A DNA stretch of 64,000 nucleotides from Dehalococcoidia bacterium (GTDB lineage: Bacteria > Chloroflexota > Dehalococcoidia > Lucifugimonadales > JAGWBF01): positions 152,952 through 216,951 of the forward strand of contig CBDFKU010000020.1 in assembly GCA_965248975.1 (NCBI GenBank), given 5' to 3'. Shown piece by piece: positions 3 through 25,232 of the stretch; positions within the stretch are counted from its first letter, which is position 1, and each line of letters opens with the position of its first letter. Under the pieces are notes generated by a model, which did not search any database, was not told the DNA's origin, and worked only from the letters and a program-made list of their open reading frames with translations. A program made the translations under genes and the position numbers.

Positions 3-1235
3 ACCGAGGTACACTACACCCGGCCAAACGGGGCGGATCGCTGGCTGGACGTGGCGGTGACGCCATTGCCTTCGGATGACGAGACCCTGGTCATAGTTAA
101 CGACGTCACCGAGCGCAAAGAGATACGTGAGAGGGTCCAGGAGAACGCCAGACTGGCCTCCATCGGCGAGCTGGCGGCGGGAGTGGCCCACGAGCTGAAC
201 AACCCATTGGCCGGAGTGCTAGGGTTCGCCCAGCTTCTCATGGCCAAGGCGGCCAATGCTTCCACAAAGGACGACCTGGCCAAGATTTACGAGCAAGCGC
301 AGCGGGCGACCAAGGTGGTGCAGAACCTGCTGTCCTTTGCCCGGGAGCACAAGCCCGAGCGACGGTACGTCAACGTCAATACCGCCATCGAGAAGGCCGT
401 GGCGCTCAAGCTGTACGACTTCTCCGTCAGCAACATACATCTGAGCCTGGACATCCCCCGCGACATCCCCAAAACCATGGCCGACGAGCACCAGCTCCAG
501 CAGGTGTTCCTGAACATCCTGGTAAACGCCGAGCATGCGATGAAAGAGGCTAATGGCGAGGGGAGCCTCCGCGTAACTGCCCAGCAGACTGGGGAGAAGA
601 TTCACATAACCTTTACCGACGATGGCCCCGGCATAGCCCCCGACCTACTGAAGAAGATCTTTAATCCCTTCTTCACCACCAAAGAGGTCGGCAAGGGCAC
701 CGGTCTTGGGCTAAGCATCTGCTATGGAATAATGCAGGAGCACGGCGGTACCATCTGGGCAGAGAGCGAGATTGGCCAGGGCTCCACGTTCCACATCGAG
801 CTACCCATCCTGGCTCCCGATAACGGCACTATCGCGGCGGTGTTAACTGACGTCACTCCCTCGGTCCCGACGCAGCGGTTCCTGGTCGTGGACGACGAGC
901 CGGTGGTCCGGGACCTTCTCTTCCAGGTGCTTTCGGCCGACGGCCATACTGTAGACCTGGCGTCGGGAGGTCAGGAGGCCTGGGACATGATTCGGGAGGA
1001 GCGATACAGCTGTATCGTAGCGGATTTGAGGATGCCCGGCGTAAGCGGCCAGGACCTTTACAGGCGCATAAGGGAAGCAGATTCACGATTGGCCGAGAAA
1101 GTTATCTTCATCACTGGAGACATGGCGAGGCCCGACGTCCGGGCGTTTCTGGAGAGCACGGGGAACCCGGTGATGGGCAAGCCCTTCGATCTGAGTGAGC
1201 TCCGGTGGCACGTGAGCAAGTTGTCAGAGCAATAA
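3..1235 (+). CDS. Hybrid sensor histidine kinase (PAS end, HisKA, HATPase_c, C-terminal receiver); 5' end cut by window edge
   Basis: Frame is open from nt 3 (..[21 protein letters not shown].. precedes the listed Met). H-box [12 protein letters not shown]; ATP-lid motifs DDGPGI and [13 protein letters not shown]; then REC-like [20 protein letters not shown]. Confidence 0.85.
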
Positions 1236-1259
1236 TCGGGTAGGGAGGTCTCTGGGGGT

Positions 1260-1892
1260 ATGAGTAAAATTCGAGTTTTCTTAGTTGACGACCACCCGGT
1301 GGTCAGAGAAGGTATACATCAGCTTCTGGAGCTGGACGAGCGGATCAGCGTTGTGGGGGAGGCAGGTGACGCCGAAGAGGCGGTTGAGGAGATCGGGGTC
1401 AGTATCCCTCAGGTGGTCCTGATGGACATCAAGCTGCCGGGGGCTGACGGTATCGAGGCCACACGGCGGTTGAAAGACCGCGTCCCCGAGTCCAGGGTGG
1501 TCATACTGAGCTCCTTCGGGGACCAATATCTGACCCAGGCCATCGAAGCAGGCGCCTGCGGGTACATCCTGAAGACGGCCTCTCAACCCGAGCTGGTGTT
1601 GGCGGTGGTGCAGGCGGCCAACGGCCAGTCGCCGGTGGACCCTTGCCTCAGTGGCGACCTGTTCGCCCAGGTCGCCAAACTGGCGAAGGGTGCACAGAGC
1701 GGTGGACTGTCCACGCGACAGCATGAGATTCTGGTTATGGCGGCCAACGGCTCATCGTCCAGGGACATCGAAGGCCATCTCTTCGTTAGCGAGGCCACGG
1801 TAAAGCGGGAGTTTCGGAATATTTTCGATGCCCTGGGAGTGAACGACCGCGTCCAGGCGGTGGCGGAGGCTTACAGGCGAAAGATCATCTAG
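1260..1892 (+). CDS. NarL/FixJ-type response regulator (REC + LuxR-type HTH)
   Basis: Receiver motifs VFLVDDHPVVREG..VLMDIKLPGADG; C-terminal LSTRQHEILVMAANGSSSRDIEGHLFVSEATVKREFRNIF; gggagg SD upstream. Confidence 0.9.
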   Translation: MSKIRVFLVDDHPVVREGIHQLLELDERISVVGEAGDAEEAVEEIGVSIPQVVLMDIKLPGADGIEATRRLKDRVPESRVVILSSFGDQYLTQAIEAGACGYILKTASQPELVLAVVQAANGQSPVDPCLSGDLFAQVAKLAKGAQSGGLSTRQHEILVMAANGSSSRDIEGHLFVSEATVKREFRNIFDALGVNDRVQAVAEAYRRKII

Positions 1893-1914
1893 CGAACCAG
1901 GTTCCAGGCCGGCG

Positions 1915-1956
1915 ATAAAGAGAGGAGGCCCTCAAACGAGGGCCTCCTCTCTTTAT
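1915..1956 (+). terminator. Intrinsic terminator-like hairpin after the NarL-type regulator
   Basis: ataaagagaggaggccctc / aaac / gagggcctcctctctttat: 19-bp perfect stem, 4-nt loop, T-rich tail. Confidence 0.75.
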
Positions 1957-2126
1957 GCCTTGATACACTCTTTCTCCACAATCTCCGTCATGGTGATCGT
2001 GCCAGGTTATAGACTCTCAGCCCCGGTTATACCAACTATAGCGTCTCCATCTGGCGGGCGGCTCACTGAGCGCACCTTTAGGGTCATCCAGAGTGATCCC
2101 CAGGTATCGCCAACCTTAATACCCCC

Positions 2127-2139
2127 GGAACTTAGCAGG
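2127..2139 (+). promoter_or_regulatory. Copy A of conserved 13-mer GGAACTTAGCAGG (candidate operator or -35-like element)
   Basis: Identical 13-mer recurs at 3684-3696. Lies 93 nt upstream of the CheY-like gene. Confidence 0.4.
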
Positions 2140-2231
2140 AGTCCGATGGGTTGCGACAATAGATTCAACGATAAAGATGGCGAGGGGGGCAGAGGCCGAG
2201 TAAAGGAACGAGGCTCCCAGGAACTCTCAAA

Positions 2232-2672
2232 ATGATGACTGACACCAAACCTCAAATTCTGATAGTGGACGATGAGGAGCTCATCGGAGAGCTGGTGATG
2301 AGATGGCTCACCGGAGTCGGCTACGGATGCGCCAGCACCCAGGACGCGGAAAACGCCATGACCCTCATGTCACACACGGATTTCGATCTCATGCTCCTCG
2401 ACGTGAGGATGCCGGGCAAGTCGGGGCTGGAGCTTCTTCCAGAGGTGAAGAGTCGATACCCCGGCACACCGGTCGTGATGATGACCGGAGCCGTGGACAA
2501 GAACATCGCCGCCCAGGCCATAGAGCGGGGGGCTTATGAGTACCTTATCAAGCCTTTCGATCTCATGGACCTGGCCAAAGCGGTCCAGGACGCGCTGCGC
2601 AGCCGGTTGGCTGCCTCCCAAGAAGGGAAAGGTCGGCGGGTCTTCAGGGACACAGTGGCGATAGAAGCCTAG
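2232..2672 (+). CDS. Single-domain CheY-like response regulator
   Basis: ILIVDDEE..LMLLDVRMPGKSG..VVMMTG..YEYLIKPF; no output domain. Confidence 0.9.
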   Translation: MMTDTKPQILIVDDEELIGELVMRWLTGVGYGCASTQDAENAMTLMSHTDFDLMLLDVRMPGKSGLELLPEVKSRYPGTPVVMMTGAVDKNIAAQAIERGAYEYLIKPFDLMDLAKAVQDALRSRLAASQEGKGRRVFRDTVAIEA

Positions 2673-2711
2673 GAATTCAGCACCCATTGGATCACGTGAA
2701 GGAGGAAGGAA

Positions 2712-2915
2712 ATGTGGTTGAAAGGATGTCCTAAGTGCGGTGGAGACCTCTACAAGGATCGGGACGTATATGGCGCTTTCGTCTCTTGCATCCAGTGCGG
2801 CATGCACAAGGACGTCGCGATCGAGCTTCCTAAGACCGCATTGGCCATGGGACTCAATCAGACGAGGAAAACTCTGGTCATCGCACGCGGCAAGGCGGAC
2901 GGAGTCAGGGTGTAA
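2712..2915 (+). CDS. Small zinc-ribbon protein (two CxxC pairs), function unknown
   Basis: CPKCGGDL..(17 aa)..CIQCG; aaggagg SD 6 nt upstream. Confidence 0.55.
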   Translation: MWLKGCPKCGGDLYKDRDVYGAFVSCIQCGMHKDVAIELPKTALAMGLNQTRKTLVIARGKADGVRV

Positions 2916-2961
2916 GGCATCCGGTCCGGCTGGGATGCACTAAAGAAAGGCAGGTGAAACC

Positions 2962-3393
2962 ATGACAACTCTACTCACTTCCCAGGTTGAAAGGATCGTC
3001 AGCGACGTGATGGCCGACTCGGCCGTAGAGCAGCCTTCGCCCCCGACCCAGAGGCTCAAGGAGCTGGGCAGGAACGTCGAAGCAATCGGGAGGATCATCG
3101 AGAGCCTGGCCGGTGGCCTCGGCGACCAGGGGCTTACCGGCGGATACGGTGCGACTGAGTGGCAGACGTCGACCATCGGCGACCTGAAGCCACGGTCGTT
3201 GGAAGTCCTGTCGTTGATGGCCCAGGGCCACAGCAACTGGGGAATCGCCGAGGCCCTGGCGCTTCAGCCCAAGACCGTTGAGAACCACATCAACTCTATT
3301 TACCAGACGCTGAATGTGTCCAACCACCGCACCAGCCATCCCCGCGTGCAGGCGGTGCTGAACTACATCGACTACACCTCGGGGAAACGATAG
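2962..3393 (+). CDS. LuxR-type HTH transcription regulator without receiver domain (LuxR solo)
   Basis: C-terminal SLEVLSLMAQGHSNWGIAEALALQPKTVENHINSIYQTLNV. The N-terminal ~80 aa has no recognisable domain. Confidence 0.75.
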   Translation: MTTLLTSQVERIVSDVMADSAVEQPSPPTQRLKELGRNVEAIGRIIESLAGGLGDQGLTGGYGATEWQTSTIGDLKPRSLEVLSLMAQGHSNWGIAEALALQPKTVENHINSIYQTLNVSNHRTSHPRVQAVLNYIDYTSGKR

Positions 3394-3683
3394 CGCCGAG
3401 CGCTTGCATCGAATATCTGTCCGGCAAATCAGCCGGGGCACCGTTGCCTTCAAGGCCGGCGGCGTGGCAGTGCCCCTCGCTGCAGGATCCGGCCCGCCCG
3501 TCACCGACCCCCTGCTCTTTGACAGCTGAATAACCGCGCCGCACATCGAAACGCATTGGGTCCCGGTGGTCGAGGTCTTTTCCTAAAAGGGAAGTCATAG
3601 TCCGGAACGCCTAATCGCGTTTCATGGAGGTCAGATCGTGGGTCATCGAGATGATCCATCAGTGTCAAAATGTCGAGACCGGG

Positions 3684-3700
3684 GGAACTTAGCAGGTTCC
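3684..3700 (+). promoter_or_regulatory. Copy B of GGAACTTAGCAGG, here forming the palindrome GGAAC-N7-GTTCC upstream of arlB1
   Basis: ggaacttagcaggttcc. Same 13-mer as 2127-2139. Lies about 200 nt upstream of the first archaellin. Confidence 0.4.
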
Positions 3701-3893
3701 GGGAAAGCTGGAACAATAAATGACAAGGATATTCCGCAGGTTCGTGGAAACCAGGAAAGGAGTGGCTTATGAGGTGATTCTTTCATGCCCGAGTGGGGGG
3801 CCGCAACACCCCGCCTAAGGGAATCACCGATCCAGAACCGTTCCAAGAGAAATAACAGACCAAGAGCAGATACAAAACAGGAGGAAAAATACA

Positions 3894-4493
3894 ATGGCAA
3901 ACCGTATATCCAGCTTTATAAGGACGGCTCCCAGGGTCTGGAAGCAGTCCAGGGGTATCACAGGACTTGAGACGGCCATCGTGCTGATAGCCTTCGTAGT
4001 GGTCTCCTCGGTGTTCGCCTTCGCGGCCTTGTCCACGGGCCTCTTCTCCGCCGACAAGTCCAAGGACACGATAAACGCGGGCCTGTCGGAAGCCAGGGGT
4101 ACCCTGGAAGTCCGGGGCACGATCATAGCCAAGGCCAACGGTGGCAAGACCGCCATCGACGAGATCTCGTTCCAGGTGGCCAACGCCGCGGGTGGCGAGG
4201 CCGTCGACATCACACCGGATGAGACCCTCATAACTTATAGCGACGTAGACCAGCTGGTCACCCTCACCAGCGCCGACTGGTCGGCCACGGGACTGGGCAA
4301 CGCCGACACAGACAAGCTGGTCGAGCCCGGCGAGATGTACGAGATCAAGCTCACCGGCTTGGAAGCCAAGCTTGTCACCGACCTGCCCAAGGACAAGCCC
4401 TTTACCCTGCAGGTCAAGCCTCCCCAGGGTGCGGTCGTCAACATCCAGCGCAGGACCCCCGTTGTGTTGGAAACTTTCAACGATCTAGGGTAA
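3894..4493 (+). CDS. arlB: Archaellin (archaeal flagellin) paralog 1
   Basis: Basic leader ..KQSRG then ITGLETAIVLIAFVVVSSVFAFAALSTGLFS (class III signal peptide plus hydrophobic helix). ~200 aa, first of three tandem paralogs upstream of arlFGHIJ-like genes. Strong aggagg SD. Confidence 0.85.
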   Translation: MANRISSFIRTAPRVWKQSRGITGLETAIVLIAFVVVSSVFAFAALSTGLFSADKSKDTINAGLSEARGTLEVRGTIIAKANGGKTAIDEISFQVANAAGGEAVDITPDETLITYSDVDQLVTLTSADWSATGLGNADTDKLVEPGEMYEIKLTGLEAKLVTDLPKDKPFTLQVKPPQGAVVNIQRRTPVVLETFNDLG

Positions 4494-4517
4494 AGGTATC
4501 TGCTCGGGTCCTTCGAA

Positions 4518-4545
4518 CTTCAGGCTTCGACGACGAAGCCTGAAG
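4518..4545 (+). promoter_or_regulatory. Perfect 12-bp stem / 4-nt loop hairpin between arlB1 and arlB2 (attenuator or mRNA-stability element)
   Basis: cttcaggcttcg acga cgaagcctgaag; no U-tract follows. Confidence 0.5.
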
Positions 4546-4597
4546 CCGGAGACCTGGGGGCGAAACACGACACATAACTTTGTAGAGAGAGATTAGA

Positions 4598-5197
4598 TTG
4601 AGACATTTACTGAAAGCCAGGATCCGACCATTTAAGAACCAGCGTGGCATTACAGGACTTGAGACGGCCATCGTGCTGATCGCCTTCGTGGTGGTCTCCT
4701 CGGTCTTCGCCTTCGCCGCGCTGTCAACGGGTCTCTTCTCCGCCGACAAGTCCAAGGACACCATCAACGCGGGCCTATCGGAAGCCAGGGGTACCCTGGA
4801 GATCCGGGGCTCCGTGATAGCGAAGGAACACGCCTCTGGTGATGTCATCGACGAGATCATTTTCCAGGTCGCCAACGCCGCGGGTGGTGAGGCCGTCGAC
4901 CTGACCCCCGGTGAGACCCTGATCACATACACCGATTTTGATCAGACGACAACGCTCGCCAAGACCTGGACAACGGGTGGATTCACGGTGACCGCCCTGG
5001 GCAACGCCGACACCGATAAGCTGGTGGAACCCGGCGAGATGTACGAAATAAAGGTCATAGGCCTGAAGAGCAAGCTTGCCACCGACCTAGTAAAGGACAA
5101 GTCCTTTACCCTCGAGGTGAAGCCTCCCCAGGGTGCGGTGGTCCACATCGATCGCAGGACTCCGGTGGTCCTGGAAACCTACATGGACCTCGGATAA
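4598..5197 (+). CDS. arlB: Archaellin paralog 2 (TTG start)
   Basis: ..KNQRG|ITGLETAIVLIAFVVV.. N- and C-terminal thirds are near-identical to paralogs 1 and 3. Confidence 0.85.
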   Translation: MRHLLKARIRPFKNQRGITGLETAIVLIAFVVVSSVFAFAALSTGLFSADKSKDTINAGLSEARGTLEIRGSVIAKEHASGDVIDEIIFQVANAAGGEAVDLTPGETLITYTDFDQTTTLAKTWTTGGFTVTALGNADTDKLVEPGEMYEIKVIGLKSKLATDLVKDKSFTLEVKPPQGAVVHIDRRTPVVLETYMDLG

Positions 5198-5277
5198 GAA
5201 CCATCAGCCGAAGGCGATCTAAGGATAGATAGCAAAATGCGAGAGGAGCTAGTGAAATGAGCTACAGAGAGAAAAAG

Positions 5278-5858
5278 ATGGGGGGGGGCTGTGGCGCGAC
5301 CAGCGCGGCATCACCGGACTTGAGACGGCCATTGTGCTGATAGCCTTCGTGGTGGTCTCCTCGGTGTTTGCCTTCGCGGCCTTGTCCACGGGCCTCTTCT
5401 CCGCCGACAAGTCCAAGGACACCATCAACGCGGGCCTATCGGAAGCCAGAGGCACCCTGGAGGTGCGAGGGTCCATAGTCGCCAAGTTAAACAGCACCGG
5501 TGATGTCGTCGACGAGATTATCTTCCAGGTAGCCAACGCCGCGGGCGGCGAGGCCGTCGATCTGACCCCCGGCGAGACACTGATCACCTATACCGATTTC
5601 GATCAGACGACGACCCTTGCGACGACCTGGACAACGGGTGGATTCACCGTGACTGCGCTCGGCAATGCCGACAGTGACAAACTGGTAGAACCCGGCGAGA
5701 TGTACGAGGTTAAGGTCATAGGCCTGGAGAGCAAGCTTGGCACCGACCTGAAAAAGGACAAGCGCTTTACCCTCGAAGTGAAGCCCCCTCAGGGTGCGGT
5801 GGTCAACATCCAGCGCAGGACCCCGGTGGTCCTCGAAACCTACATGGACCTCGGATAG
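5278..5858 (+). CDS. arlB: Archaellin paralog 3, start disrupted by the G9 tract (uninterrupted ORF only from GTG 5334, which lacks the signal peptide)
   Basis: The archaellin frame is open back to 5256 and reads ..GGGLWRDQRGITGLETAIV.. with no ATG/GTG/TTG before 5334. The ATG at 5278 aligns with the TTG start context of arlB2 (tagagagaga..). G10 or G7 would give MGG(G)LWRDQRG|ITGLE. Confidence 0.75.
5280..5288 (+). repeat. G9 homopolymer immediately after the arlB3 ATG
   Basis: aaaaagATGGGGGGGGGCTGTGG. The ATG at 5278 is out of frame with the archaellin ORF at this tract length. Confidence 0.95.
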
Positions 5859-5916
5859 TGTAAACCCAGGCGACTCAAGGCGCCAGCTGAATCGGCCACC
5901 AACGAAGGCCCCTGTC

Positions 5917-5965
5917 GAGCCGGCCCGGGACCAGCTAACGAGGCCCGCCGGTCCCGGGTCGGCTC
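5917..5965 (+). terminator. Long GC hairpin after the archaellin genes (terminator/processing-like, no T-tract)
   Basis: gagccggcccgggacc ..17 nt.. ggtcccgggtcggctc (16 bp, one G-U). Confidence 0.4.
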
Positions 5966-5995
5966 ATCGATACCCGAAGCATATGGAGGACGGCA

Positions 5996-6544
5996 ATGCC
6001 CACCGAAGAGAAAAGGATAGAGGGCCTGGAAAATGAGCTCAAGGTTCTGAAGGGACAAGTCAAGCAGACCTTGGTCGACCTCCGGGCCTACATGCTGCGG
6101 GAGTCCTCTCCTTTGCGAGAATCAGGTGGATTCGACAGGCCGCCCCAAGTGCCAAGGAGCGAAGTCAGCGTCAACAACACCGACTCGGGTAGTGGGGCCG
6201 GGCAACCCAACCAACAGCCGGCCGCTCCGGTACCGGCCGCTCCTCCACCCCCACCGGTCGCCCAGCAGCCTCAATATGCAGCTGCACCGCCTCCTCCGCC
6301 CCAGGTGGTCTATCAGCCGGCCCCGCCACCCATGGCTTCGCCACCGCCGGGTTACTCACAATACCACCCTGGGGAGCCTCAGCGGGAGCCTCAGCGCGAA
6401 TCGAGAGAGTCTCAGCGCGAGTCACGAGAGGCAGAGCGTGAGTCTCGGGGACCTCGACCTCCGCAGGACGAGTCGGAGAGGCCTCAGAGGCGGGACCGGC
6501 GACAACGTGGGGAACAGTATTCAGAGAACGAATCCACCCGGTAG
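5996..6544 (+). CDS. Archaellum-operon protein, N-terminal part: coiled coil plus Pro-rich and RE/RS-rich low complexity (ArlX/ArlD position)
   Basis: MPTEEKRIEGLENELKVLKGQVKQTLVDLRAY, then PAAPVPAAPPPPPVAQQP.., then REPQRESRESQRESREAERESRG. Ends at a TAG that is in frame with the next ORF. Confidence 0.5.
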   Translation: MPTEEKRIEGLENELKVLKGQVKQTLVDLRAYMLRESSPLRESGGFDRPPQVPRSEVSVNNTDSGSGAGQPNQQPAAPVPAAPPPPPVAQQPQYAAAPPPPPQVVYQPAPPPMASPPPGYSQYHPGEPQREPQRESRESQRESREAERESRGPRPPQDESERPQRRDRRQRGEQYSENESTR

Positions 6545-6550
6545 GACCGC

Positions 6551-7120
6551 GTGGGATATGATCGGCAGGAATCCCGCTCGGTCAGACGGGATCGAAAAGA
6601 CTCCAGGCCAGAGCGCCGCCGGGATGATGATCCCCGCCAGGCCTCACAGTCCCGGCGGATGGAGGGGGATAAACACCAGATGGAGTATGAGGAAGACTTC
6701 GAGGACATTAACGACCACTGGGACGAGTATCGACCCGAGCAGATGCCAATGTCCAGGGATCAGGTGATGGGTCCGGACAACCCTAACGTGAACATGATCT
6801 CAAACCTGGTACGGTGGGCGTTCAAGGCCAGAAGCCGCATGAGTCACGAAGCCCTCATGGACTACCTGCGACTCTATATGGCTTCCGGCAAGTATTCCGA
6901 GGAACTGAGAGATATGATCGGCTACATCTGTGACATTGTGGGAGAGAATCCGACCTACGAGCCGGATCCTTCCCAGGAATGCGTAGACCTGATTCACCAG
7001 CTTCACGGCATCCTGGCAGGGGACAGTCATATCTCGCACCGGATGCCTCCGAAGATATCTCATAACGGACACTCTGGTGGCCAGGATCGAAAAGGACTGT
7101 ATACCAATGGGAGGGGTTGA
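6551..7120 (+). CDS. Archaellum-operon protein, C-terminal part (same frame as 5996-6544); tentative ArlD/E-like C-terminal domain
   Basis: The charged RD/RE-rich linker continues across the TAG. The C-terminal NMISNLVRWAFKARSRMSHEALMDYLRLYMASGKYSEELRDMIGYI resembles, from memory only, the W..F...L.YY..GWIS pattern of FlaD/E. No convincing SD before GTG 6551. Confidence 0.4.
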   Translation: MGYDRQESRSVRRDRKDSRPERRRDDDPRQASQSRRMEGDKHQMEYEEDFEDINDHWDEYRPEQMPMSRDQVMGPDNPNVNMISNLVRWAFKARSRMSHEALMDYLRLYMASGKYSEELRDMIGYICDIVGENPTYEPDPSQECVDLIHQLHGILAGDSHISHRMPPKISHNGHSGGQDRKGLYTNGRG

Positions 7121-7602
7121 GCGTGGAGAAGACTATTACGACTGCCCTGCTGGTTATAGCGGGCATCATAGCCGCCGTGGCACTGATCAACGCAGTGCTT
7201 CCGGCCGCCAATAAAGGCTCTGGAGCGCTGCTGATGGCCAACGCGGCCTCAGCGGACCGCATCAAGACTGACGTGGAGATTGTGTTCGCTTCCGGCAACG
7301 CCACCGGCGACGAGATCAACTTCTGGGTGAAGAACGTGGGGAGCAACGTCATCAAGCCCATAGACGAATCGGATGTGTTCGTTACTACGCCCACCATCAT
7401 CAGTCGCATCCCTTACAACGCCTCGTGTACGGCGGGCTCTGCGCCCTGCTGGAAGCATGCCCTGGAAGGCGGAGCCACCGCCTGGACCTTGTCGGCAACG
7501 GTCAAAGTCAGCGTGTATCTCAGCAGCGGGACTGCCGGGCTTCATAAGATAAAAATAGCCGTTTACAACTCGGTCAGTGCTGAGAAAGAGTTCAGTATCT
7601 AG
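7117..7602 (+). CDS. ArlF/ArlG-family archaellum protein (N-terminal TM helix + beta-rich domain)
   Basis: TITTALLVIAGIIAAVALINAVL followed by a beta-rich soluble domain. TTG start overlaps the upstream stop (TTGA), with gggagggg SD. Confidence 0.6.
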   Translation: MSVEKTITTALLVIAGIIAAVALINAVLPAANKGSGALLMANAASADRIKTDVEIVFASGNATGDEINFWVKNVGSNVIKPIDESDVFVTTPTIISRIPYNASCTAGSAPCWKHALEGGATAWTLSATVKVSVYLSSGTAGLHKIKIAVYNSVSAEKEFSI

Positions 7603-7707
7603 GGACCCGCCATCGCGGCGACGGGGGTCCTGGGGTGCCATACGAGTGAACGTGGAGGTCGAGTCTTTTTCAATGGGAAGCGAGGATGAACGCCGGAGGC
7701 CGACAGG

Positions 7708-8240
7708 ATGAGTGCGGTAATTTCAGGGGGATTGATCATCTCACTGTTCATACTGGTGGCGATGCTAATCTCCAGCACTTTCCTGACCACCAGCGACACC
7801 CAGGCCACCTCGCTCAAGGAAATCTCGAAACTACGGATCGACCAGATAGGCGGCGACATATCTATTACTTCTACCATCGCTGCCAACTCGGGAGACGGGA
7901 CCAACGTGACACTAGCCGTAAATAACCCCGGATCCATCGGATATGGAGACTTCTCGCAGGTGGACGTGGTAATCGATTACACCAACACCACCGGCGATCA
8001 AGAGGTAAGGCGTCTGACCTATGTTTGCAGGCAGCTATGCGGAAACTCGGCGGATCCCGGAGACAACCAGTGGACCGTCACCAGCCTGGTCCCCGATGGT
8101 TACAGCCCCAAGATGTGGAACCCCGACGAGGTGGCAAACATGACCTTGAACTCGTTCCCACGGTCAAGAGTGGGACGTCAGGAACGGTAGCCGTAGCCGT
8201 CCCGGGCGGGGTCTCGGACTCGGCCTACTACACCAACTAG
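7708..8240 (+). CDS. Second ArlF/ArlG-family protein; probable frameshift near 8143-8155 (uninterrupted ORF stops at 8190)
   Basis: N-terminal TM helix GGLIISLFILVAMLISSTFL. After ..EVANMTL, the adjacent frame reads ELVPTVKSGTSGTVAVAVPGGVSDSAYYTN*. This parallels the C-terminus of the neighbouring paralog (..LSSGTAGLHKIKIAVYNSVSAEKEFSI*). The listed frame ends in the atypical NSFPRSRVGRQER. Confidence 0.55.
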
Positions 8241-8284
8241 GCACACGGCACCGGTTATCAAACTAGTGGGAGGAGGGATAGAGG

Positions 8285-8998
8285 ATGGTTGCGGAGCCAA
8301 AAGCACTGGCGACTTCTATTTCCACGGGCAGCAACGAGATAGACAAGAAGATGGGGGGCGGAATACCCATAGGCTCCCTGACCCTGGTCGAAGGGGTCTC
8401 CGACGCCGGCAAGAGCGTGCTCACCCAGCACCTTGCTCACGAAGCGGTTACCGGCGGATTTGAGGTCGCCTACTACACCACCGAGAACACCGTCAAGAGC
8501 CTGCTCACCCAGATGGGCTCCCTTAACCTGGACGTGACTGACTACTTCCTGATGGACCGGCTCCGGATCTACCCGTTGCAGATTTCCCAAAACGATGAGA
8601 GTGGGACCGCTTTCAAGAACCTGGCCACGCACATAGATACCATTCCTCGGGCGTTCAATGTCGTAGTCATCGACTCGGTCACCAACCTGGTGACCCACAG
8701 CACAGAATCCACCATCATGGACTTCTTCATTGCTTGTAAAGACATATGTGACAACGACAGAAGCGTCTTCATGGTGGTCCACTCCTACGCATTCGACGAG
8801 CGGATGCTCATCCGTGTCAGGTCTCTGTGCGACGCCCATCTCAAGCTCCGGCTTGAGGAGATCGGCGAGAGGCTGGTCAAGATGATGGAAGTGAGCAAGG
8901 TGCGCAACGCCGAACGGACCACGGGAAACATCATCAGCTTCGACGTTGAGCCCGGGTTGGGTATGAGAATCATTCCTGTGACGAAGGCGAAAGCATAA
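8285..8998 (+). CDS. arlH: ArlH/FlaH, KaiC/RecA-like archaellum ATPase
   Basis: STGSNEIDKKMGGGIPIGSLTLVEGVSDAGKSVL (Walker A). ~237 aa, directly upstream of arlI. Confidence 0.8.
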   Translation: MVAEPKALATSISTGSNEIDKKMGGGIPIGSLTLVEGVSDAGKSVLTQHLAHEAVTGGFEVAYYTTENTVKSLLTQMGSLNLDVTDYFLMDRLRIYPLQISQNDESGTAFKNLATHIDTIPRAFNVVVIDSVTNLVTHSTESTIMDFFIACKDICDNDRSVFMVVHSYAFDERMLIRVRSLCDAHLKLRLEEIGERLVKMMEVSKVRNAERTTGNIISFDVEPGLGMRIIPVTKAKA

Positions 8999-9000
8999 AG

Positions 9001-10722
9001 ATGGCAAAGCCACTTCTACCATTCGAAGTTCAGTCGGAGCATAGCCACAAGGGCGACGATTCCAAGTGCCCTGTGTTCCGCATGCTTCCCAAGGAGCTCA
9101 GAAAGGAGTCAAAGAATAAGGCCCACCTGAGGGAGTACCTGCACGCCCTGCCCATAGACAAGTTGGGTGTGCCCCAGTTCCACAAGACCCTGGACCGCAA
9201 GCTGGGGGAACTGCAGAACCCTAACCTCATATATCCCTCGGGCAAAGAGAACTTTATCCACATCTATCCCAATCCCGGCGATGCGCGGAACCACTACATA
9301 GCCATCGAGCCGGGCATGTCCGAGGACCTTGCCGGCATCAATGATGATGTGGAGATCCGGCTGGTGGACTTCGTCGGCGACCTTGACGATGGCACCATCG
9401 ACGGTAAAGAGCGAGCCCAGCTCCTACTGAAGAGCTTGGACAAGGTCTGCACGGTCAGCAAGGATGGCGCCAAGCCTCAGAAAGGCACCAGCAAGGACGG
9501 CAAAGGAAAGGTGGTCCTGACTCCTAAGCAGTACGAGGCCCTGAGATATCTGATGGTCAGGGACAAGGAAGGTATGGGCCCCCTCGAACCCATGATAACC
9601 GACCCATACATCGAGGACATAAGCTGCAGCGGGGTGGGATCCCTGTTCGTAGAGCACAAGATCTTCAAGGGTCTCAAGGCCACCGTAGCCTTCGACTCCA
9701 TCGAGGAGCTGGACAGCTTCGTCATTCGGATGTCGGAGAAGATCGGCAAGCCGGTGACCTTCCGGGACCCCATCGTGGACGCTACCCTTCCCGATGGCTC
9801 CCGAATCAATATTGTCTTCGGGGGAGACCTGTCCAAGCGCGGCAGCAACTTTACCATCCGGAAGTTCATGGCCAGCCCCATGAGCATCCTGCAGCTCGTG
9901 GCGTCAGGCGGCCTCACCTACGAGATGGCGGCGTACTTCTCCCTGACCCTGGGCCACGGTATGAACATGTTCGTCTCCGGGGAGACGGCCTCGGGTAAGA
10001 CCACCCTGATGAACGCCCTTACCACCTTCATCGCACCCACCGGCAAGATCGTCAGCATCGAGGATACCCCCGAGCTCCAGGTTCCTCACCCCAACTGGAT
10101 CAGGGAGGTGGTGCGGGGCAGCACAAAGGCCTCATCGAACTCGGCGGTGACAATGTTCGACCTGCTGAAGGCCGCCCTGAGGCAGCGGCCGAACGAGATC
10201 ATCATCGGGGAGATCCGGGGGGAGGAAGGGGCCATCGCCTTCCAGGCTATGCAGACAGGCCACGCGTGCATGGCCACCTTCCACGCCGCGTCGGTTGAGA
10301 AGCTGATCCAGAGGCTCACTGGCAACCCCATCAACGTGCCCAAGACCTATGTCGACAACCTGAACCTGGTGGCCATCCAGAGCATGGTCAGGCTTCCCAA
10401 CGGCAAAGAAGGCAGAAGGATCCTGAGCGTGAACGAGATCGTGGGGTACGACTCCTCCAGCGACTCCTTCTCCTTCATCGAGGTGTTCCGGTGGAACCCC
10501 GCCGATGACGCCTTCGAGTTCAGCGGCTACATGAACAGCTATCTCCTGGAGGAGCGCATCGCCATGCAGAGGGGGATACCCCCTCATAAGAAAAGGACCA
10601 TCTACGACGAGCTAACCAGGCGGGCCAACATTCTTAAGAAGTTACAGGAACAGGGGAAAAACGACTTCTATGAACTCTACCAAGTCCTCTCGAAAGCGTA
10701 TAGAGAAGGAGTCCTCCGATAG
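9001..10722 (+). CDS. arlI: ArlI/FlaI, archaellum assembly/motor ATPase (secretion ATPase superfamily)
   Basis: Walker A VSGETASGKTTLMNAL; IVSIEDTPEL; RQRPNEIIIGEIRGEE; TGHACMATFHA. 573 aa. Confidence 0.85.
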   Translation: MAKPLLPFEVQSEHSHKGDDSKCPVFRMLPKELRKESKNKAHLREYLHALPIDKLGVPQFHKTLDRKLGELQNPNLIYPSGKENFIHIYPNPGDARNHYIAIEPGMSEDLAGINDDVEIRLVDFVGDLDDGTIDGKERAQLLLKSLDKVCTVSKDGAKPQKGTSKDGKGKVVLTPKQYEALRYLMVRDKEGMGPLEPMITDPYIEDISCSGVGSLFVEHKIFKGLKATVAFDSIEELDSFVIRMSEKIGKPVTFRDPIVDATLPDGSRINIVFGGDLSKRGSNFTIRKFMASPMSILQLVASGGLTYEMAAYFSLTLGHGMNMFVSGETASGKTTLMNALTTFIAPTGKIVSIEDTPELQVPHPNWIREVVRGSTKASSNSAVTMFDLLKAALRQRPNEIIIGEIRGEEGAIAFQAMQTGHACMATFHAASVEKLIQRLTGNPINVPKTYVDNLNLVAIQSMVRLPNGKEGRRILSVNEIVGYDSSSDSFSFIEVFRWNPADDAFEFSGYMNSYLLEERIAMQRGIPPHKKRTIYDELTRRANILKKLQEQGKNDFYELYQVLSKAYREGVLR

Positions 10723-12153
10723 CGTCGTACTGAGCTTCGACTTGTTCTCCAGCCTTACCTACATGTCGGCGCTAGCTATCGGGGAGACTCCAAGGGACGT
10801 GATTTTCCAGCACGTCATCCAGCAGCCGTACAAGACTGCTTCGTACTTCAAGCAGGTATACCTGCTGACGAAGAGGTTGGGGTTCGAGTACGGCCGCAGC
10901 TTCCAGCTGGTGTCCAAGAAGGCCGGGGCCTACACGGTGAAGAGCTTGCTCCTGAGGTTCGCGGGCTCCATATCCTCCGGAGAGTCCGAGCAGGAGTTCC
11001 TGGCCCAGGAGGCCAGGGTGGAGCGCGAGCAATACATCGACCAGTACCAGAGGAGCCTGGAAAGCCTTCAAAAGTGGGGCGACGCCTACGCCGCTCTCCT
11101 TGTATCGGTGTCCTTGATCGTGGTGGTGTCGATGATCTCGACGATGCTTTATGACATCGGCAACACCTTCGTCATGATGCTTACGGGGACGATGTTCTGT
11201 ATGTCCCTGGGGGGGCGTGGATCATCTACAAGTCAGCTCCATACGAATTGAAAGCCTATAAAAACCATAGGGGTCCCAAAGAAAGACGGAGATCCGCCCA
11301 GTTGCTGATGATCTTTGGGCCTCTGGGCGCTCTGATGGCCTTGTACCTGGCAGCTACCTCGGGGATCGGCCTTGCCTTCCTTGCCTTCGGCCTTTCCTTG
11401 CTGCCCGCGGGAATCTACGCATATATCGACGACATGAAGGTATCTCAGCTGGACCAAGAGGCCTCCAAGTTCCTGCGGTCCATGGGCAACGTCGCCGAGT
11501 CCCTTGGCACTACCCTGTCCTCGGCCATGACGAAGATCGACCGGCGTTCCCTTGGAAGCCTTGAGCCCTACGTGAAGAGGCTCCAGTCCCGCCTCCGCAG
11601 CCGAATAACACCGAACCTATGCTGGGACAGGTTCATGGACGAGACGGGCAGCGAGCTGATCCATCGCTCCACCAGGATGTTCGTGGACGGCGTGAGCCTG
11701 GGCGGCAGCCCGGAGAGAGTGGGCGCGGTCGCCTCGGACTACGCGATGAGCATCGCCCTGTTGAGGGCGAGGCGGCACGTAACGGCCTTACCCTTCGCCT
11801 ACCTGACCATCCCCCTTCATGGAGCCATGACAGGGCTGCTGATCTTCGTCCTGGAGATAATGGTTGCCTTCAACGGTAAGCTCAACACTGCCACCGAGGA
11901 GCTGTTAGCACAAGGTGGGAATTCAGCCGCGTCGATCCCCAACCTTCACGTTTTCAACCCCCAGGACATGTCACAGACCAGCCTCATCACCATGGGCGCG
12001 GTCATAGTGCTCACGGTGGCCAACACCCTGGCGCCCAAATTCGCGACTGGAGGGCACCGGCTGAAGCTGGCGTTCTACGGCAGCATCATGTGCACCCTCA
12101 CTGGGATAAACCTGATCATCATCCCTCCAGTCGCCGCGATGGTTCTCAAGTAA
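10670..12153 (+). CDS. arlJ: ArlJ/FlaJ polytopic membrane platform protein, interrupted by a frameshift at a G7 tract (listed as ORFs 10670-11251 and 11248-12153)
   Basis: Two T2SF-like halves. The second frame is open upstream and reads ..AWIIYKSAPYELKAYKN.. Joined at the tract, this continues the hydrophobic helix MMLTGTMFCMSLGG. The second ORF has only a TTG with no SD. Confidence 0.75.
11209..11215 (+). repeat. G7 homopolymer at the arlJ frame break
   Basis: ccctGGGGGGGcgtgg. One extra G (or two fewer) fuses the two halves. Confidence 0.9.
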
Positions 12154-12208
12154 ACCATGGCAGTTTCGGGCCGGAAAGACCCTTAAGTAAGTCCGAGGAG
12201 GATACGGC

Positions 12209-12697
12209 ATGGCGTTCATGAGCAAGTTCAAGAACAAGAAGGGCTCCAAAGACGAGCTAGATGATGAGATGCCAGATCTGGATTCAGATCTGGACGATGA
12301 CTCCGATGAGGAGGAAGAGAAGGAAAGCGACGTCGGAAGGTTCAAGCTCAACACCGTAAAGCTGAAAAAGAACCCAGATGACTCCGCCAAGACCGAAGAC
12401 GAGGAAGAAGACGCCGAAGCAGACGACGAAGCCGATGAGGCCGACGAAGATGAAGACGACGATGAGTCGGCCGAAAATGCATCCGTCGGTGAGGCAGAGA
12501 GCCCAGACGACTCGTTGATGGACCTCTTCGAGGTTGAAGAGGTGGTAGACCACCATCTCATCTCAATGGCTTCATGGGCGGATGAAGTGGAGGCGACGGA
12601 GTTGGCCGAGGAGCTGGATGCACTGGTCGACGAGATGCGCGAACGGTGGGGAGACGAAGACGATTACGAGCCAGAGGAAGAAAGACGGATATCATGA
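12209..12697 (+). CDS. Extremely acidic (D/E-rich) 162-aa protein of unknown function, last gene of the archaellum cluster
   Basis: DELDDEMPDLDSDLDDDSDEEEEKE..EDEEEDAEADDEADEADEDEDDDE..; gaggagg SD. No domain recognised. Confidence 0.5.
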   Translation: MAFMSKFKNKKGSKDELDDEMPDLDSDLDDDSDEEEEKESDVGRFKLNTVKLKKNPDDSAKTEDEEEDAEADDEADEADEDEDDDESAENASVGEAESPDDSLMDLFEVEEVVDHHLISMASWADEVEATELAEELDALVDEMRERWGDEDDYEPEEERRIS

Positions 12698-12761
12698 CGG
12701 CGACGTCGGATCGGTTCAGTGAGGGGACCAAGACTATGGTGAGGGAGGTCGGGAGCTAGAT

Positions 12762-14327
12762 ATGGGTATGATCACGGGTAGCCAGGGGGAACTTACTATG
12801 CCGCAAGGGATGAGCGTCGGCTCGAAAATGGGCACCCTTGGCCGTGGGATGGGACGATACAAGCTGACCGTCTTCTTTGCCATTACCGCGGCGCTGGTTA
12901 TCGCTGTCGGCTCGGTAATAGTGAATCATGTCATACGCGACCTCCCCGTCGACAACGTGGTGAGGATAGCGGAAGAGAACGCGACGCTGGAGGTTCAACG
13001 GATCGAGTCTTTGATGCGGGCGGCGGGCAGTAACGACCTTCAGGAGTCCCTGCCGGCGGACCTTGAGTCTTTGATCGACTCCAGCAGCGGTGTCCTTGGT
13101 CGCTTGCAGGGTTTGGATATCGTGAAGTTCAATCTGCTGAACACCGACGGAGCTCTTTTGTGGAGCGCCAGACAGGGCCAGGCCGGACTCTCTGACGAGC
13201 AGGTTTACCTGTTTCAGGGCGCCCTGGCCGGACAGACCCGATCGCGGTTGGTCGACGGCCGATTCCTGGTCGACATGAACGGCGTTGAGCAAAGGGTCGA
13301 CGTGGCCGAAACCTATATACCCGTCACGAACGCATCCTCGGGAGAAATTGTCGGCGTCCTGGAGGTCCACAGCGACGTGACCAGAGAGGCTGCCCTTCAG
13401 GTGGACGGCGCGAAGTCGGCCCTTCGTATCACAATGGGGACCATGGCTGGCCTGGTGCTGGTCCTCCTCGGCTTCGTGGTGGTGGCCGACGTAATGATCT
13501 CCCGGTCCAGCCGGCGTGAGCTGTCCCTGGTGGAGGAAGCCAACCGTAACCTGGAAGAACGGGCTAGAGAGCGAGCTCAGGAGTTGGAGCGTGCTAACCA
13601 GCAGCTAGTCGAAGCCCAGGACCAGCTGGTACGCACCGAGAGGTTGGTAGCCATCGGACAGCTCTCCGGCAGCGTAGCCCACGATCTGAGGAATCCCCTG
13701 GGGGCCATCAACAATGCCATCTATTACCTGCGCAGGAGGCTGAACAACAGCGAGGCAGTCCGTTCCAATCCCAGGATCGGGCAGTTTCTGCAGATCATCG
13801 AGGACGAGGTACAGCACTCCAACCAGATAATCACGGATCTGATGAACTTCGCGCGGGCCAAGGCTCCCTCCCTTTCTCCGACGAATCTCGAGACGGTGAT
13901 CGAAGACACCATCTCCACCATCGCGTTGAGGGAGGATGTCAGGATCACCCGGCTGTTTGAGTCAGACCTACCGGCGGTTCCGGCCGACGCCGACCAGCTG
14001 CTGCGGGTTTTCATGAACCTGATCGTCAACGCTCAGGACGCGATGCCCGACGGTGGCGAGCTGACCATCAACGCCAACGTTGTGGGTAACTACGTCGAAG
14101 TGGGCTTCAGGGACAGGGGCATGGGAATACCCAATGAAGACATGAAGAAGATATTCGACCCCCTGTTTACGACAAAGACGCAGGGTACCGGTTTGGGACT
14201 GGCCATCTGCCAGCAGATCATTTCAAAGCATGGCGGGACCATCGACGTATCCGGCGGGTACGGCCAGGGCGCCACCTTCACCGTTAAGCTGCCCCGATTA
14301 ATCGAAAGATCGGACGGAGGAATGTAA
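12762..14327 (+). CDS. Membrane sensor histidine kinase (TM - extracytoplasmic domain - TM - coiled coil - HisKA - HATPase_c)
   Basis: TM segments LTVFFAITAALVIAVGSVIV and MGTMAGLVLVLLGFVVVADV; H-box SGSVAHDLRNPL; DRGMGI; GTGLGLAICQ. Confidence 0.9.
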   Translation: MGMITGSQGELTMPQGMSVGSKMGTLGRGMGRYKLTVFFAITAALVIAVGSVIVNHVIRDLPVDNVVRIAEENATLEVQRIESLMRAAGSNDLQESLPADLESLIDSSSGVLGRLQGLDIVKFNLLNTDGALLWSARQGQAGLSDEQVYLFQGALAGQTRSRLVDGRFLVDMNGVEQRVDVAETYIPVTNASSGEIVGVLEVHSDVTREAALQVDGAKSALRITMGTMAGLVLVLLGFVVVADVMISRSSRRELSLVEEANRNLEERARERAQELERANQQLVEAQDQLVRTERLVAIGQLSGSVAHDLRNPLGAINNAIYYLRRRLNNSEAVRSNPRIGQFLQIIEDEVQHSNQIITDLMNFARAKAPSLSPTNLETVIEDTISTIALREDVRITRLFESDLPAVPADADQLLRVFMNLIVNAQDAMPDGGELTINANVVGNYVEVGFRDRGMGIPNEDMKKIFDPLFTTKTQGTGLGLAICQQIISKHGGTIDVSGGYGQGATFTVKLPRLIERSDGGM

Positions 14328-15049
14328 TGACGGAACACCAGGGCAGGATCATGGTTGTCGACGACGATCTGGGTATGAGGGTCACCCTCGAGGGCGTCAT
14401 CGAAGATGAAGGTTACGAGGTCGTTGCGGTGGAGGATGGATACCAGGCTATCGAGATGGTTAGGCAAACGGAATTCGCCCTTATCTTCATGGATATCAAG
14501 ATGCCGGGGTTGAACGGAGTCGAGACCTACAGGGAGATCAGAAAGATAAGCCCGGACTCCGTCGTGGTCATGATGACCGGTTTCTCCGTGGAAGACCTTG
14601 TCAAAGAGTCCCTGGAAGTCGGGGCCTACTCCGTGATCTACAAGCCCTTCGACATGGCCCAGGTGATCGAGATCGTCGAAGCCGTTCTGGAGACCACGTG
14701 CGTGTTGGTGGTAGACGATCGTGCGGCCGACCGGATAACCCTGCAGGGCATCCTCGAGGACGAGGGATACGACGTGTTCGTGGCGCAACACGGAAGCCAG
14801 GCCGTTTCCATGGTACGGGAGAAACACTACAGGGTGATCCTGATGGACATAAAAATGCCCGGCATGGACGGAATCTCCGCCTTCGAGGAGATCCGGAAGA
14901 TCGACCCGCAGGTGAAAGTCATTTTCGTCACCGGGTACGCCATGGACGACGCTGTGAAAGGAGCCCTCAAGAGGGGCGCCTACTCCCTGGTTATCAAGCC
15001 GGTCCGGCCGGAAGAGATGCTGACCCTGATGAAGGCAATCACGCAATAG
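14327..15049 (+). CDS. Tandem double-receiver response regulator (REC-REC, no output domain)
   Basis: IMVVDDD..IFMDIKMPGLNG..YKPF and VLVVDDR..ILMDIKMPGMDG..IKPV. Start overlaps the kinase stop (TAATG). Confidence 0.9.
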   Translation: MTEHQGRIMVVDDDLGMRVTLEGVIEDEGYEVVAVEDGYQAIEMVRQTEFALIFMDIKMPGLNGVETYREIRKISPDSVVVMMTGFSVEDLVKESLEVGAYSVIYKPFDMAQVIEIVEAVLETTCVLVVDDRAADRITLQGILEDEGYDVFVAQHGSQAVSMVREKHYRVILMDIKMPGMDGISAFEEIRKIDPQVKVIFVTGYAMDDAVKGALKRGAYSLVIKPVRPEEMLTLMKAITQ

Positions 15050-19409: not shown

Positions 19410-19479
19410 TGGGTGTAGCCCGCGGTCCGAGAGATCTAGTGACGGCCGAAGGAATGGCTGATTCTGGGAGGTGCAACCG

Positions 19480-20648: not shown

Positions 20649-21554
20649 ATGCCCATCGAGCAGGTCGCCCAGGAGCTTGAGCGCATCCTATCGCCGAACC
20701 AGGAGATAGAGGTTCTGGGCAGCGGCTACTGGGGCCCGGGAGGACCCGCCGAAGGGCCCGTGTGGTGGCGCGAGGAGGGATATCTCCTCTTCACCGACAT
20801 CCGAGCGAGCAAAATCATGAAGTGGACGCCCGGCGAGGGCGTCTCTGTCTTTCGAGAGCCGACCAACCAGGCCAACGGCCTAACCCGCGATATCCAGGGC
20901 AGGTTGATAGCCTGTGAGCACGCCAGCCGCCGGGTCACCAGGACGGAGCCCGACGGCAGCATCACCGTCGTGGCCAACAACTATCGCGGCACCCGATTGG
21001 ACCAACCCAACGACGTGGTGGTGAAGTCCGACGGCAGCATATATTTCACCGACCCTTGGGTCCTCCCTAACCCCAAGGACCAGGTAGACCTGGACTTCGC
21101 GGGTGTATACCGAGTCTCGCCCGATCTGGGCACGATCAGCTTGCTGGTGGACGACTTCGTGCTCCCCAACGGGCTGGCCTTCTCCCCCGATGAGAAGGTC
21201 CTTTACGTGGACGACTCCCGCAGGATGCAGATCCGGGCCTTCGACGTGCAGTCCAACGGCACCCTGGGCCGGCACACGGACCGGGTGTTCTACCAATTCG
21301 AGAAGGTGCGCCCCGGAACCGCCGACGGCATGAAAGTGGACGAAGAGGGGAACGTCTACTCTACCGGACCGGGTGGTGTCTGGGTCATCGACCCGTCGGG
21401 GAAGCATCTGGGAACGATCCTGACGGGGGCCGAGCAGACCACCAACGTGGCCTTCGGCGGGGACGACCGCAAGACCCTGTTCATCACGACCCGGGACAAC
21501 TTCGGGCGAATACAGGTGAACATACCGGGGATATCCGTTCCGACGGACAGATAG
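20649..21554 (+). CDS. SMP-30/gluconolactonase/LRE-family protein
   Basis: GPAEGPVWW..LLFTDI..ANGLTRD..PNDVVV..DGSIYFTDP..PNGLAFSPDEKVLYV. Confidence 0.8.
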   Translation: MPIEQVAQELERILSPNQEIEVLGSGYWGPGGPAEGPVWWREEGYLLFTDIRASKIMKWTPGEGVSVFREPTNQANGLTRDIQGRLIACEHASRRVTRTEPDGSITVVANNYRGTRLDQPNDVVVKSDGSIYFTDPWVLPNPKDQVDLDFAGVYRVSPDLGTISLLVDDFVLPNGLAFSPDEKVLYVDDSRRMQIRAFDVQSNGTLGRHTDRVFYQFEKVRPGTADGMKVDEEGNVYSTGPGGVWVIDPSGKHLGTILTGAEQTTNVAFGGDDRKTLFITTRDNFGRIQVNIPGISVPTDR

Positions 21555-21571
21555 CCCGTGTAGGTCCCGGC

Positions 21572-25208: not shown

Positions 25209-25232
25209 TCTCAGGCTGTCCGGAGGGTACAC

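Follow-up and report, generated by a model that had tools for sequence, protein, structure and literature searches.

Archaellum genes of the window

We analysed a stretch of 64,000 nt (hereafter the window), corresponding to positions 152,952–216,951 of the forward strand of contig CBDFKU010000020.1 (assembly GCA_965248975.1, Dehalococcoidia bacterium), which carries a gene cluster for an archaellum (archaeal flagellum; arl genes). The cluster comprises three archaellin genes, an ArlC/D/E-like gene, putative arlG and arlF genes, and arlH, arlI and arlJ (Table 1; all coordinates are those of the window). An earlier note on this DNA had proposed such an operon, and all of the open reading frames (ORFs) that it listed exist. 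For comparison, a scan with one genome per species returned 193 relatives of the window's ArlI, of which the best 80 loci were used; counts of related loci refer to 22, 78, 81 or 82 loci or sources, as stated with each count. The exact ArlI sequence had no match in public assemblies. Profile cut-offs were 29.5 bits for Pfam Arch_flagellin (PF01917) and, in NCBIfam, 194 bits for NF004723 (FlaH), 215 bits for the ArlH equivalog, 550 bits for NF058587 (ArlI), 570 bits for NF004703 (ArlJ/FlaJ) and 110 bits for the ArlG and ArlF models.

Table 1. Coordinates of the arl genes and of the flanking genes in the window. TM, transmembrane; HK, histidine kinase; REC, receiver domain.
Feature	Position	Strand	Description
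arlB1	3894–4493	+	Archaellin; class III signal peptide, predicted cleavage RG/ITGLE
Hairpin between arlB1 and arlB2	4496–4566	+	12-bp perfect core, no T-tract
arlB2	4598–5197	+	Archaellin; TTG start
arlB3	5257–5858	+	Archaellin; start out of frame with body
ArlC/D/E-like gene	5996–7120	+	ORFs 5996–6544 and 6551–7120 in one frame, TAG 6542–6544 between
arlG	7117–7602	+	Predicted stator component; small protein, TM helix and beta-rich domain
arlF	7708–8190	+	Predicted stator component; small protein, TM helix and beta-rich domain
arlH	8285–8998	+	KaiC-like ATPase; NF004723 (FlaH) 268.3 bits
arlI	9001–10722	+	Predicted motor and assembly ATPase; NF058587 654.9 bits
arlJ	10670–12153	+	Predicted membrane platform; as assembled two ORFs, 10670–11251 and 11248–12153, in different frames
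Conserved acidic protein	12209–12697	+	Directly after last arl gene
Hybrid HK-REC	51–1235	+	Pfam
REC-LuxR	1260–1892	+	Pfam
Single REC	2232–2672	+	Pfam
Zn-ribbon ORF	2712–2915	+	Pfam
LuxR-type HTH protein	2962–3393	+	Pfam
Membrane HK	12762–14327	+	Pfam
REC-REC	14327–15049	+	Pfam
REC-PAS-HK-REC	15060–17009	+	Pfam
REC-HK-REC-REC	17062–19086	+	Pfam
REC-HATPase	19471–20541	+	Pfam

The arlI product exceeded the cut-off of the ArlI model by a wide margin, the next-best families reaching at most 169 bits (in NCBIfam, TadA 162 bits and PilB 54 bits); among PDB proteins it matched FlaI (4ii7) with 412 bits and CpaF with 162 bits. The motifs SGETASGKTT and IIIGEIRGEE, by which the earlier note had recognised a secretion-superfamily ATPase, are both present. 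The KaiC-like ATPase with the Walker A sequence GVSDAGKS that it had described upstream is ArlH: besides passing the FlaH cut-off, this protein reached 202.7 bits against the ArlH equivalog, slightly under the cut-off, and matched FlaH (4yds) in the PDB with E = 9e-31.

The two small proteins with a transmembrane (TM) helix and a beta-rich domain are ArlG- and ArlF-like, with Arch_flagellin scores of 34.1 and 31.2 bits, both just above the cut-off. The first matched Archaeoglobus ArlG in BLASTP (E = 9e-17) and has homologs in 62 loci; the second matched the Archaeoglobus gene that follows arlG (E = 2e-07), which itself weakly matches FlaF_Ig-like. Synteny with Archaeoglobus and these BLASTP matches support the assignment of the two products as putative ArlG and ArlF. 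Sequence searches of the PDB with the two proteins returned no solved homologs.

Where a single polytopic protein had been expected, the assembly holds two ORFs in different frames, joined at a run of seven G residues (11209–11215). They match positions 28–193 and 226–520 of the 525 positions of NF004703. Adding one G to the run undoes a −1 frameshift and restores an ArlJ of 494 aa, which gives a single NF004703 match of 428 bits (E = 3e-128).

The archaellin genes arlB1 and arlB2 scored 98.7 and 89.8 bits against Arch_flagellin, and both also matched TIGR02537, the N-terminal domain of archaellins and type IV pilins; arlB2 is 72% identical to arlB1 and 85% identical to a reconstructed arlB3. 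A GGAGG sequence lies 9 nt before the ATG of arlB1. As the earlier note had observed of the three tandem genes, a class III leader is present in every copy (..RG/ITGLETAIVLIAF.., with ..RG/ITGLETAIVLIAFVVVSSVFAFAALSTG.. shared by all three); its account has to be amended for arlB3, the start of which is out of frame. There, an ATG at 5257 is preceded by AGGAG, and the body of the gene lies in another frame, a G9 run at 5280–5288 being one G short. With G10 the product is restored to MSYREKKMGGGLWRDQRG/ITGLE.., and as assembled the first in-frame start is a GTG at 5334, already within the mature N-terminus.

Against the archaellin chain 9i5h_C, arlB1 gave E = 3e-39, with its residue 22 (the Ile after RG) aligned to residue 1 of the mature chain (ITALETAIILIAF..). 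This entry is presumably the Litorilinea structure, since its Ile N-terminus agrees with the published account of that filament. The structure of the Litorilinea filament is reported to begin with the Ile that follows the site of class III cleavage (Sivabalasarma et al., 2025; PMC12488501), and the alignment at residue 22 of arlB1 agrees with that start.

The hairpin between arlB1 and arlB2 folds with −41.5 kcal/mol (z = −4.6 against shuffles); it may have a role in transcript attenuation or stabilisation, and could set the archaellin transcript ratio. A GC-rich hairpin with a 16-bp stem (5917–5965; z = −2.0) lies between arlB3 and the ArlC/D/E-like gene.

The gene between arlB3 and arlG

For the gene at 5996–7120 the earlier note had suggested ArlX. 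Its product combines an N-terminal coiled coil with a conserved C-terminal helical domain, and the low-complexity linker between them, rich in Pro, Gln, Arg and Glu, is hypervariable. No N-terminal TM helix is visible in the sequence, which thus does not support an architecture like that of ArlX, a protein anchored in the membrane. The window protein had no significant match among Pfam, NCBIfam or PDB profiles, nor did it match an ArlX model. A hidden Markov model (HMM) of the family, however, matches 70 of 82 sources, the syntenic Archaeoglobus gene among them, and the protein encoded by that gene in turn scores 16.6 bits against Arch_fla_DE (cut-off 21 bits) and weakly matches FlaC_arch. The region of these matches is also where the Chloroflexota profile aligns (hhalign probability 65%, E = 6e-5). 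The weak connection of its relatives to ArlC, ArlD and ArlE lends moderate support to a predicted ArlC/D/E-like protein rather than ArlX. In one related locus (L034, 7969–8993) the N- and C-terminal parts of the ArlC/D/E-like protein lie in different frames, and this may be another broken copy.

Archaellum or pilus

In the PDB the window proteins find their best matches in archaellin, FlaI and FlaH rather than in CpaF or pilins, and from these profile searches the locus is, as the earlier note had held, identified as an archaellum and not as a Tad or type IV pilus. A Tad or type IV pilus mis-read as an archaellum deserves a comparison, as the Tad pilus too is a type IV filament machine of archaeal derivation that occurs in bacteria and has a related ATPase, and ArlI shares the T2SSE fold with CpaF and TadA (162 bits to each). 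Tad pili, however, have no ArlH, ArlF/G or archaellins, whereas a KaiC-like ArlH, putative ArlF/G stator proteins and archaellins are all present here; the CpaF/TadA models reach about one quarter of the score of the ArlI model on the window protein (655 bits, with 412 bits to FlaI). The platform protein matches ArlJ models only, and Flp pilin, TadB/C and secretin were not found. On profile scores the Tad or type IV pilus reading is refuted, and we give it a negligible probability.

Some results do weigh against the identification. In NCBIfam, the putative ArlG (33.3 bits) and ArlF (about 25 bits) fall well below the cut-off for their models, and the reconstructed ArlJ, at 428 bits, stays below the curated cut-off of NF004703. 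The ArlC/D/E-like assignment is built on a chain of sub-threshold similarities. Finally, no class III signal peptidase or prepilin peptidase was found in the 64-kb window, as the earlier note had already remarked. Searches of the window for che and flagellar genes also found none.

The gene order had been taken for the crenarchaeal B-X-G-F-H-I-J layout, a reading that we replace with the arl2 type. An arlG before arlF defines that type, Archaeoglobus included (PMC12488501), and in the window, by homology to the Archaeoglobus pair, G precedes F. The order is the same as in the Archaeoglobus arl2 locus (L075, NZ_JACDNT010000032.1), which reads arlB, arlB, coiled-coil/ArlDE-like, arlG, arlF, arlH, arlI, arlJ, acidic, and the two ArlI proteins are 55% identical end-to-end, including the long euryarchaeal N-terminus; the Archaeoglobus locus differs in its archaeal host, its GC content of 46% and its unrelated codon usage. 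Sulfolobus acidocaldarius (arlB-X-G-F-H-I-J) also has G before F and a highly similar C-terminal ATPase domain in ArlI (the 4ii7 match above), but the alignment of Sulfolobus FlaI is limited to residues 174–570 of the window ArlI, with none across the N-terminal ~170 residues, and Sulfolobus ArlX differs from the product of the window gene at the X position, in which no TM helix is seen and whose family is linked to ArlC/D/E.

Host and origin of the locus

Nearly all of the ArlI relatives (best 80 of 193) come from Dehalococcoidia, SAR202 or other Chloroflexota, with at most 78% identity, and two are archaeal records with ~55% identity; some of these loci sit on complete chromosomes of 2.3–3.5 Mb. 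The closest ArlI overall, at 80% identity, is that of L081 (ENA ERZ26167216, ctg478878); the nearest ArlI proteins, from Dehalococcoidia, SAR202 and other Chloroflexota, are 64–80% identical, against 55% for archaeal ArlI. A housekeeping gene at a distance of 33 kb, that of citrate synthase, has its closest named matches in Dehalococcoidia and SAR202 (78–79%). Relative synonymous codon usage (RSCU) of the arl genes correlates with that of the other window genes at r = 0.97, and with that of Archaeoglobus arl genes at r = 0.18; among arl genes, two-component system genes and the remaining window genes, the correlations are 0.96–0.97. GC content at third codon positions (GC3) is continuous across the locus. 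By its codon usage and GC3 the operon has thus adapted completely to this host, as would be expected if it had been acquired long ago and passed down within the phylum.

That the contig might be a chimera of archaeal and bacterial DNA, or itself archaeal, is highly improbable. The signalling and archaellum genes, all on the + strand (1–20541), have a GC content of 57–60%, slightly lower than the 61–66% of the metabolic part (20649–64000), as a junction might produce, but the low-GC block also holds typical bacterial two-component genes, the RSCU correlations run through the whole window and not towards the Archaeoglobus arl genes, and the same operon with its neighbours recurs in dozens of independent Chloroflexota assemblies, closed chromosomes included. 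By these comparisons the host is identified as a SAR202-related bacterium of the Dehalococcoidia (Chloroflexota) and the contig is not a chimera.

We are confident that the window holds an arl2-type archaellum cluster in a Chloroflexota chromosome, a member of the bacterial archaellum clade; this concerns identity and origin, not functional state. The core inference of the earlier note, an archaellum in a bacterium of the Chloroflexota, is right. As part of the best explanation, the clade stems from an ancient horizontal transfer out of arl2-bearing euryarchaea (Methanotecta), with later inheritance within the Chloroflexota.

Comparison with described systems

Archaellum genes were noted in Chloroflexota metagenome-assembled genomes in 2013 (Hug, 2013), and archaellum loci have since been reported in 243 of 3,780 Chloroflexota genomes, with transfer inferred from arl2-bearing Methanotecta (Sivabalasarma et al., 2025). 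These Chloroflexota loci have arlCDE and not arlX, place arlG before arlF, keep the peptidase outside the locus and have no CheF. In one such organism, Litorilinea aerophila, swimming has been shown and the filament structure solved at 2.7 Å (Sivabalasarma et al., 2025). The cultured SAR202 bacterium ‘Candidatus Lucifugimonas marina’ carries tandem flaB genes and flaGFHIJ, and no archaella were seen in it (Lim et al., 2023; PMC10444878). Thus, the suspicion that the category was known in Chloroflexota is confirmed by the literature of 2013, 2023 and 2025, and the statement that the locus matches no described system gives way before the 243 genomes and the cultured SAR202 strains. That bacteria can carry an archaeal machine for motility is established knowledge; the window adds another member of a described clade.

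The Litorilinea locus resembles that of the window in being a Chloroflexota arl2-type cluster with arlB, an arlCDE-like gene, arlG before arlF and arlHIJ; its signal peptidase lies outside the locus, and none was found in the 64 kb of the window. It differs in its host, Litorilinea belonging to the Caldilineales and the window to a SAR202-like member of the Dehalococcoidia, and in its pilN/pilO-LysM genes, which the window lacks nearby; the window, in turn, has three arlB genes, downstream genes for an acidic protein and a phosphorelay, and three lesions that break ORFs. Function has been demonstrated in Litorilinea only. ‘Ca. Lucifugimonas marina’ shares with the window a SAR202/Dehalococcoidia host and tandem flaB followed by flaGFHIJ, but has six tandem and six scattered flaB genes against three arlB; named SAR202 ArlI proteins are 64–67% identical to that of the window.

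Carrying over the working scheme of the archaeal and Litorilinea systems, we infer that a class III signal peptidase encoded elsewhere would cut the pre-archaellins after RG, and that a hexamer of ArlI on the ArlJ platform would assemble and rotate the filament, using ATP. ArlH would modulate ArlI, ArlF and ArlG would form the stator and the ArlC/D/E-like protein would form a cytoplasmic ring or switch, with expression or switching probably controlled by the adjacent two-component genes.

Three interrupted genes

The earlier note had treated the locus as intact; as assembled, three of its genes are interrupted. Of these, arlB3 is a redundant copy that can be spared as long as arlB1 and arlB2 are intact. 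In 21 of 22 related loci the ArlC/D/E-like gene runs as a single ORF without a break; in the window a GTG (6551), with AGGA upstream, comes 6 nt after its TAG (6542–6544), and archaeal arlCDE genes occur fused or split, so that this break may be a fission and not a loss. The arlJ frameshift is the sole clearly disabling lesion of the three: as assembled there is no intact ArlJ ORF, and arlJ deletion mutants of the studied model archaea are not known to make archaella. The junction restored with G8 reads MSLGGAWIIYK, compared with SLGGTWIIFK in the closest relative (L081) and SFFGAYIIYK in L001 and L002, and the restored protein has the same length as ArlJ of L081.

On balance we lean towards a real lesion in arlJ, and thus a recent inactivation of this strain's archaellum. 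Interruptions affect 3 of the 10 genes of the locus against none of about 45–52 others (Fisher p ~0.003–0.005), the ~50 genes outside the locus showing no visible lesion. Of 78 loci in which the ArlJ region is complete, the window is the only one with a split ArlJ. The opposite view, that the locus is intact and functional and that the two frameshifts, perhaps with the TAG, are errors of assembly or consensus, is a substantial possibility that we rate a little below even. Several points weigh on its side and against inactivation. Both frameshifts are −1 changes, the window's two longest G runs (G9 and G7) each being short of a single G, and the 545-kb contig is typical of long-read metagenome assemblies, in which under-called homopolymers would be the expected signature; one added G gives products that match relatives in length, catalytic motifs are kept in all other arl genes, and the TAG has the possible explanation given above. 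Against error, the TAG is not of the homopolymer type, the two other 7-base homopolymers of the window lie in frame in intact genes (Ldh_2 and a peroxiredoxin) and its 22 six-base runs are in frame wherever they are coding.

It is also conceivable, if quite improbable, that the poly-G tracts are contingency loci, in which slipped-strand changes in the G runs switch arlB3 and arlJ, and hence motility, by phase variation. In the window, the longest two G tracts are indeed both found in arl genes, each one base out of frame, and that of arlB3 comes immediately after the start codon. The tracts are not conserved, however: at the arlJ site the closest relative has CTCGGTGGAACG, and L001 and L002 have GGGG only. 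In related loci, G or C runs of at least 7 bases turn up about once per 10–20 kb and do not favour arl genes, and we met no phase-variable archaellum in the literature, in which no search was aimed at one.

In L081 an IS3-family insertion sequence (rve and HTH_Tnp_1, − strand; 6527–7701) lies between the ArlC/D/E-like gene and arlG, and the ArlC/D/E-like ORF reads through into the end of the element. Its presence in the operon of the closest relative makes decay of the operon in this lineage plausible. With three lesions in one operon and this insertion, the locus may be a snapshot of loss, and loss of archaella would fit their patchy distribution in the phylum and the fact that none have been seen in SAR202 cultures.

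The acidic protein and the signalling neighbourhood

Directly downstream of arlJ lies a gene for an acidic protein, with an N-terminal basic amphipathic motif, M(G/A)(L/F)(L/M)xK, a disordered region rich in Asp and Glu and a C-terminal helical motif, LxDIFEEExxVDxxLxDLAxxxxDVxAxELAxELR. Searches of Pfam, NCBIfam and PDB profiles with this protein returned nothing significant. An HMM of the family matches 56 of 82 sources, always on the same strand and directly 3′ of the last arl gene. In SAR202-like loci that last gene is arlJ; in those Dehalococcoidales loci that have the order B-G-(F)-J-CDE-H-I, it is arlI. The acidic protein of Archaeoglobus was considered as a homolog of the Chloroflexota family and rejected, the hhalign probability being 1% once that sequence was left out of the alignment; as far as these alignments tell, the likeness is one of position and composition only.

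The acidic gene is followed by genes for a membrane histidine kinase (HK), a double receiver (REC-REC) and hybrid kinases (Table 1). The order acidic protein, HK, REC-REC, REC-x-HK directly after the arl genes is shared by the window and 24 Dehalococcoidales loci and was not found in the closest SAR202-like relatives of the window. In L014, L048, L066 and ~20 other Dehalococcoidales loci the whole arrangement reads arlB(n)-arlG-(arlF)-arlJ-ArlCDE-like-arlH-arlI-acidic-HK-REC-REC-REC.HK, consistent with a mention in the literature of ‘variation in arlHIJ order’. L061 has two tandem full-length ArlI paralogues (6861–10353).

We found no published description of the acidic protein with its phosphorelay block. 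CheF is absent from bacteria, and for this reason the block is a reasonable candidate for a control input; synteny suggests that the downstream phosphorelay may be functionally linked to the archaellum. A bolder proposal, that the Dehalococcoidia archaellum locus extends past the canonical arl genes to include an undescribed acidic adaptor-like protein and, in the window and ~24 Dehalococcoidales loci, a dedicated phosphorelay, we regard as tentative and rather doubtful. If true, the acidic protein and the phosphorelay together could stand in for the missing CheF/Che link and let environmental signals act on the expression or rotation of the archaellum in bacteria. The acidic protein with its kinase, double-receiver and hybrid-kinase block is, in any case, a testable candidate for archaellum control without CheF, a question raised in papers of 2025–2026.

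The first 20 kb of the window are all on the + strand and dense with signalling genes. Those upstream of arlB1 (51–3393) may also belong to the archaellum system: of 81 related loci, 32 have a LuxR-family (GerE) gene upstream of arlB, its orientation and architecture differing among them.

Other features of the window

The bacterial style that the earlier note had seen in the rest of the window holds for a thiamine pyrophosphate (TPP) riboswitch, ThiG, a ComF-like protein, LuxR-family regulators and an element resembling a selenocysteine insertion sequence (SECIS) within a coding sequence. In a consensus scan of 2600–12900, sigma-70 promoter-like and terminator-like sites were not enriched over shuffles. 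The TPP riboswitch (52397–52508, − strand; 58.4 bits against a gathering score of 54.3) precedes thiG (51541–52380) and thiE (50810–51535).

A peroxiredoxin gene of the AhpC/TSA-like type (49082–49546, − strand) has an in-frame TGA at the expected peroxidatic Cys (..FYVFDFTGG-TGA-THQVSSF..), and a stable hairpin, GUCUCCUCG...CGAGGAGA, begins 12 nt past the TGA (z = −3.8). The gene probably encodes a selenocysteine peroxiredoxin and contains a bacterial SECIS. A C7 run at 49244–49250 was considered as a third homopolymer lesion and rejected, since it is in frame inside this TGA-containing gene. A Cys-type peroxiredoxin gene (49602–50165, − strand) adjoins it.

The region 20649–36687 holds SAR202-style paralogues: four Amidohydro_2 proteins, two luciferase-like monooxygenases, two CoxL-like molybdenum hydroxylases, an SGL lactonase and a SnoaL-like protein. 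Within it, two genes (25700–26509 and 26534–27559) have no family match, and neither resembles a prepilin peptidase. One encodes a protein of 269 aa with an HExxH motif (IHEALHG); the other, with an atypically low GC3 of 0.63, encodes a protein of 341 aa with several N-terminal TM helices.

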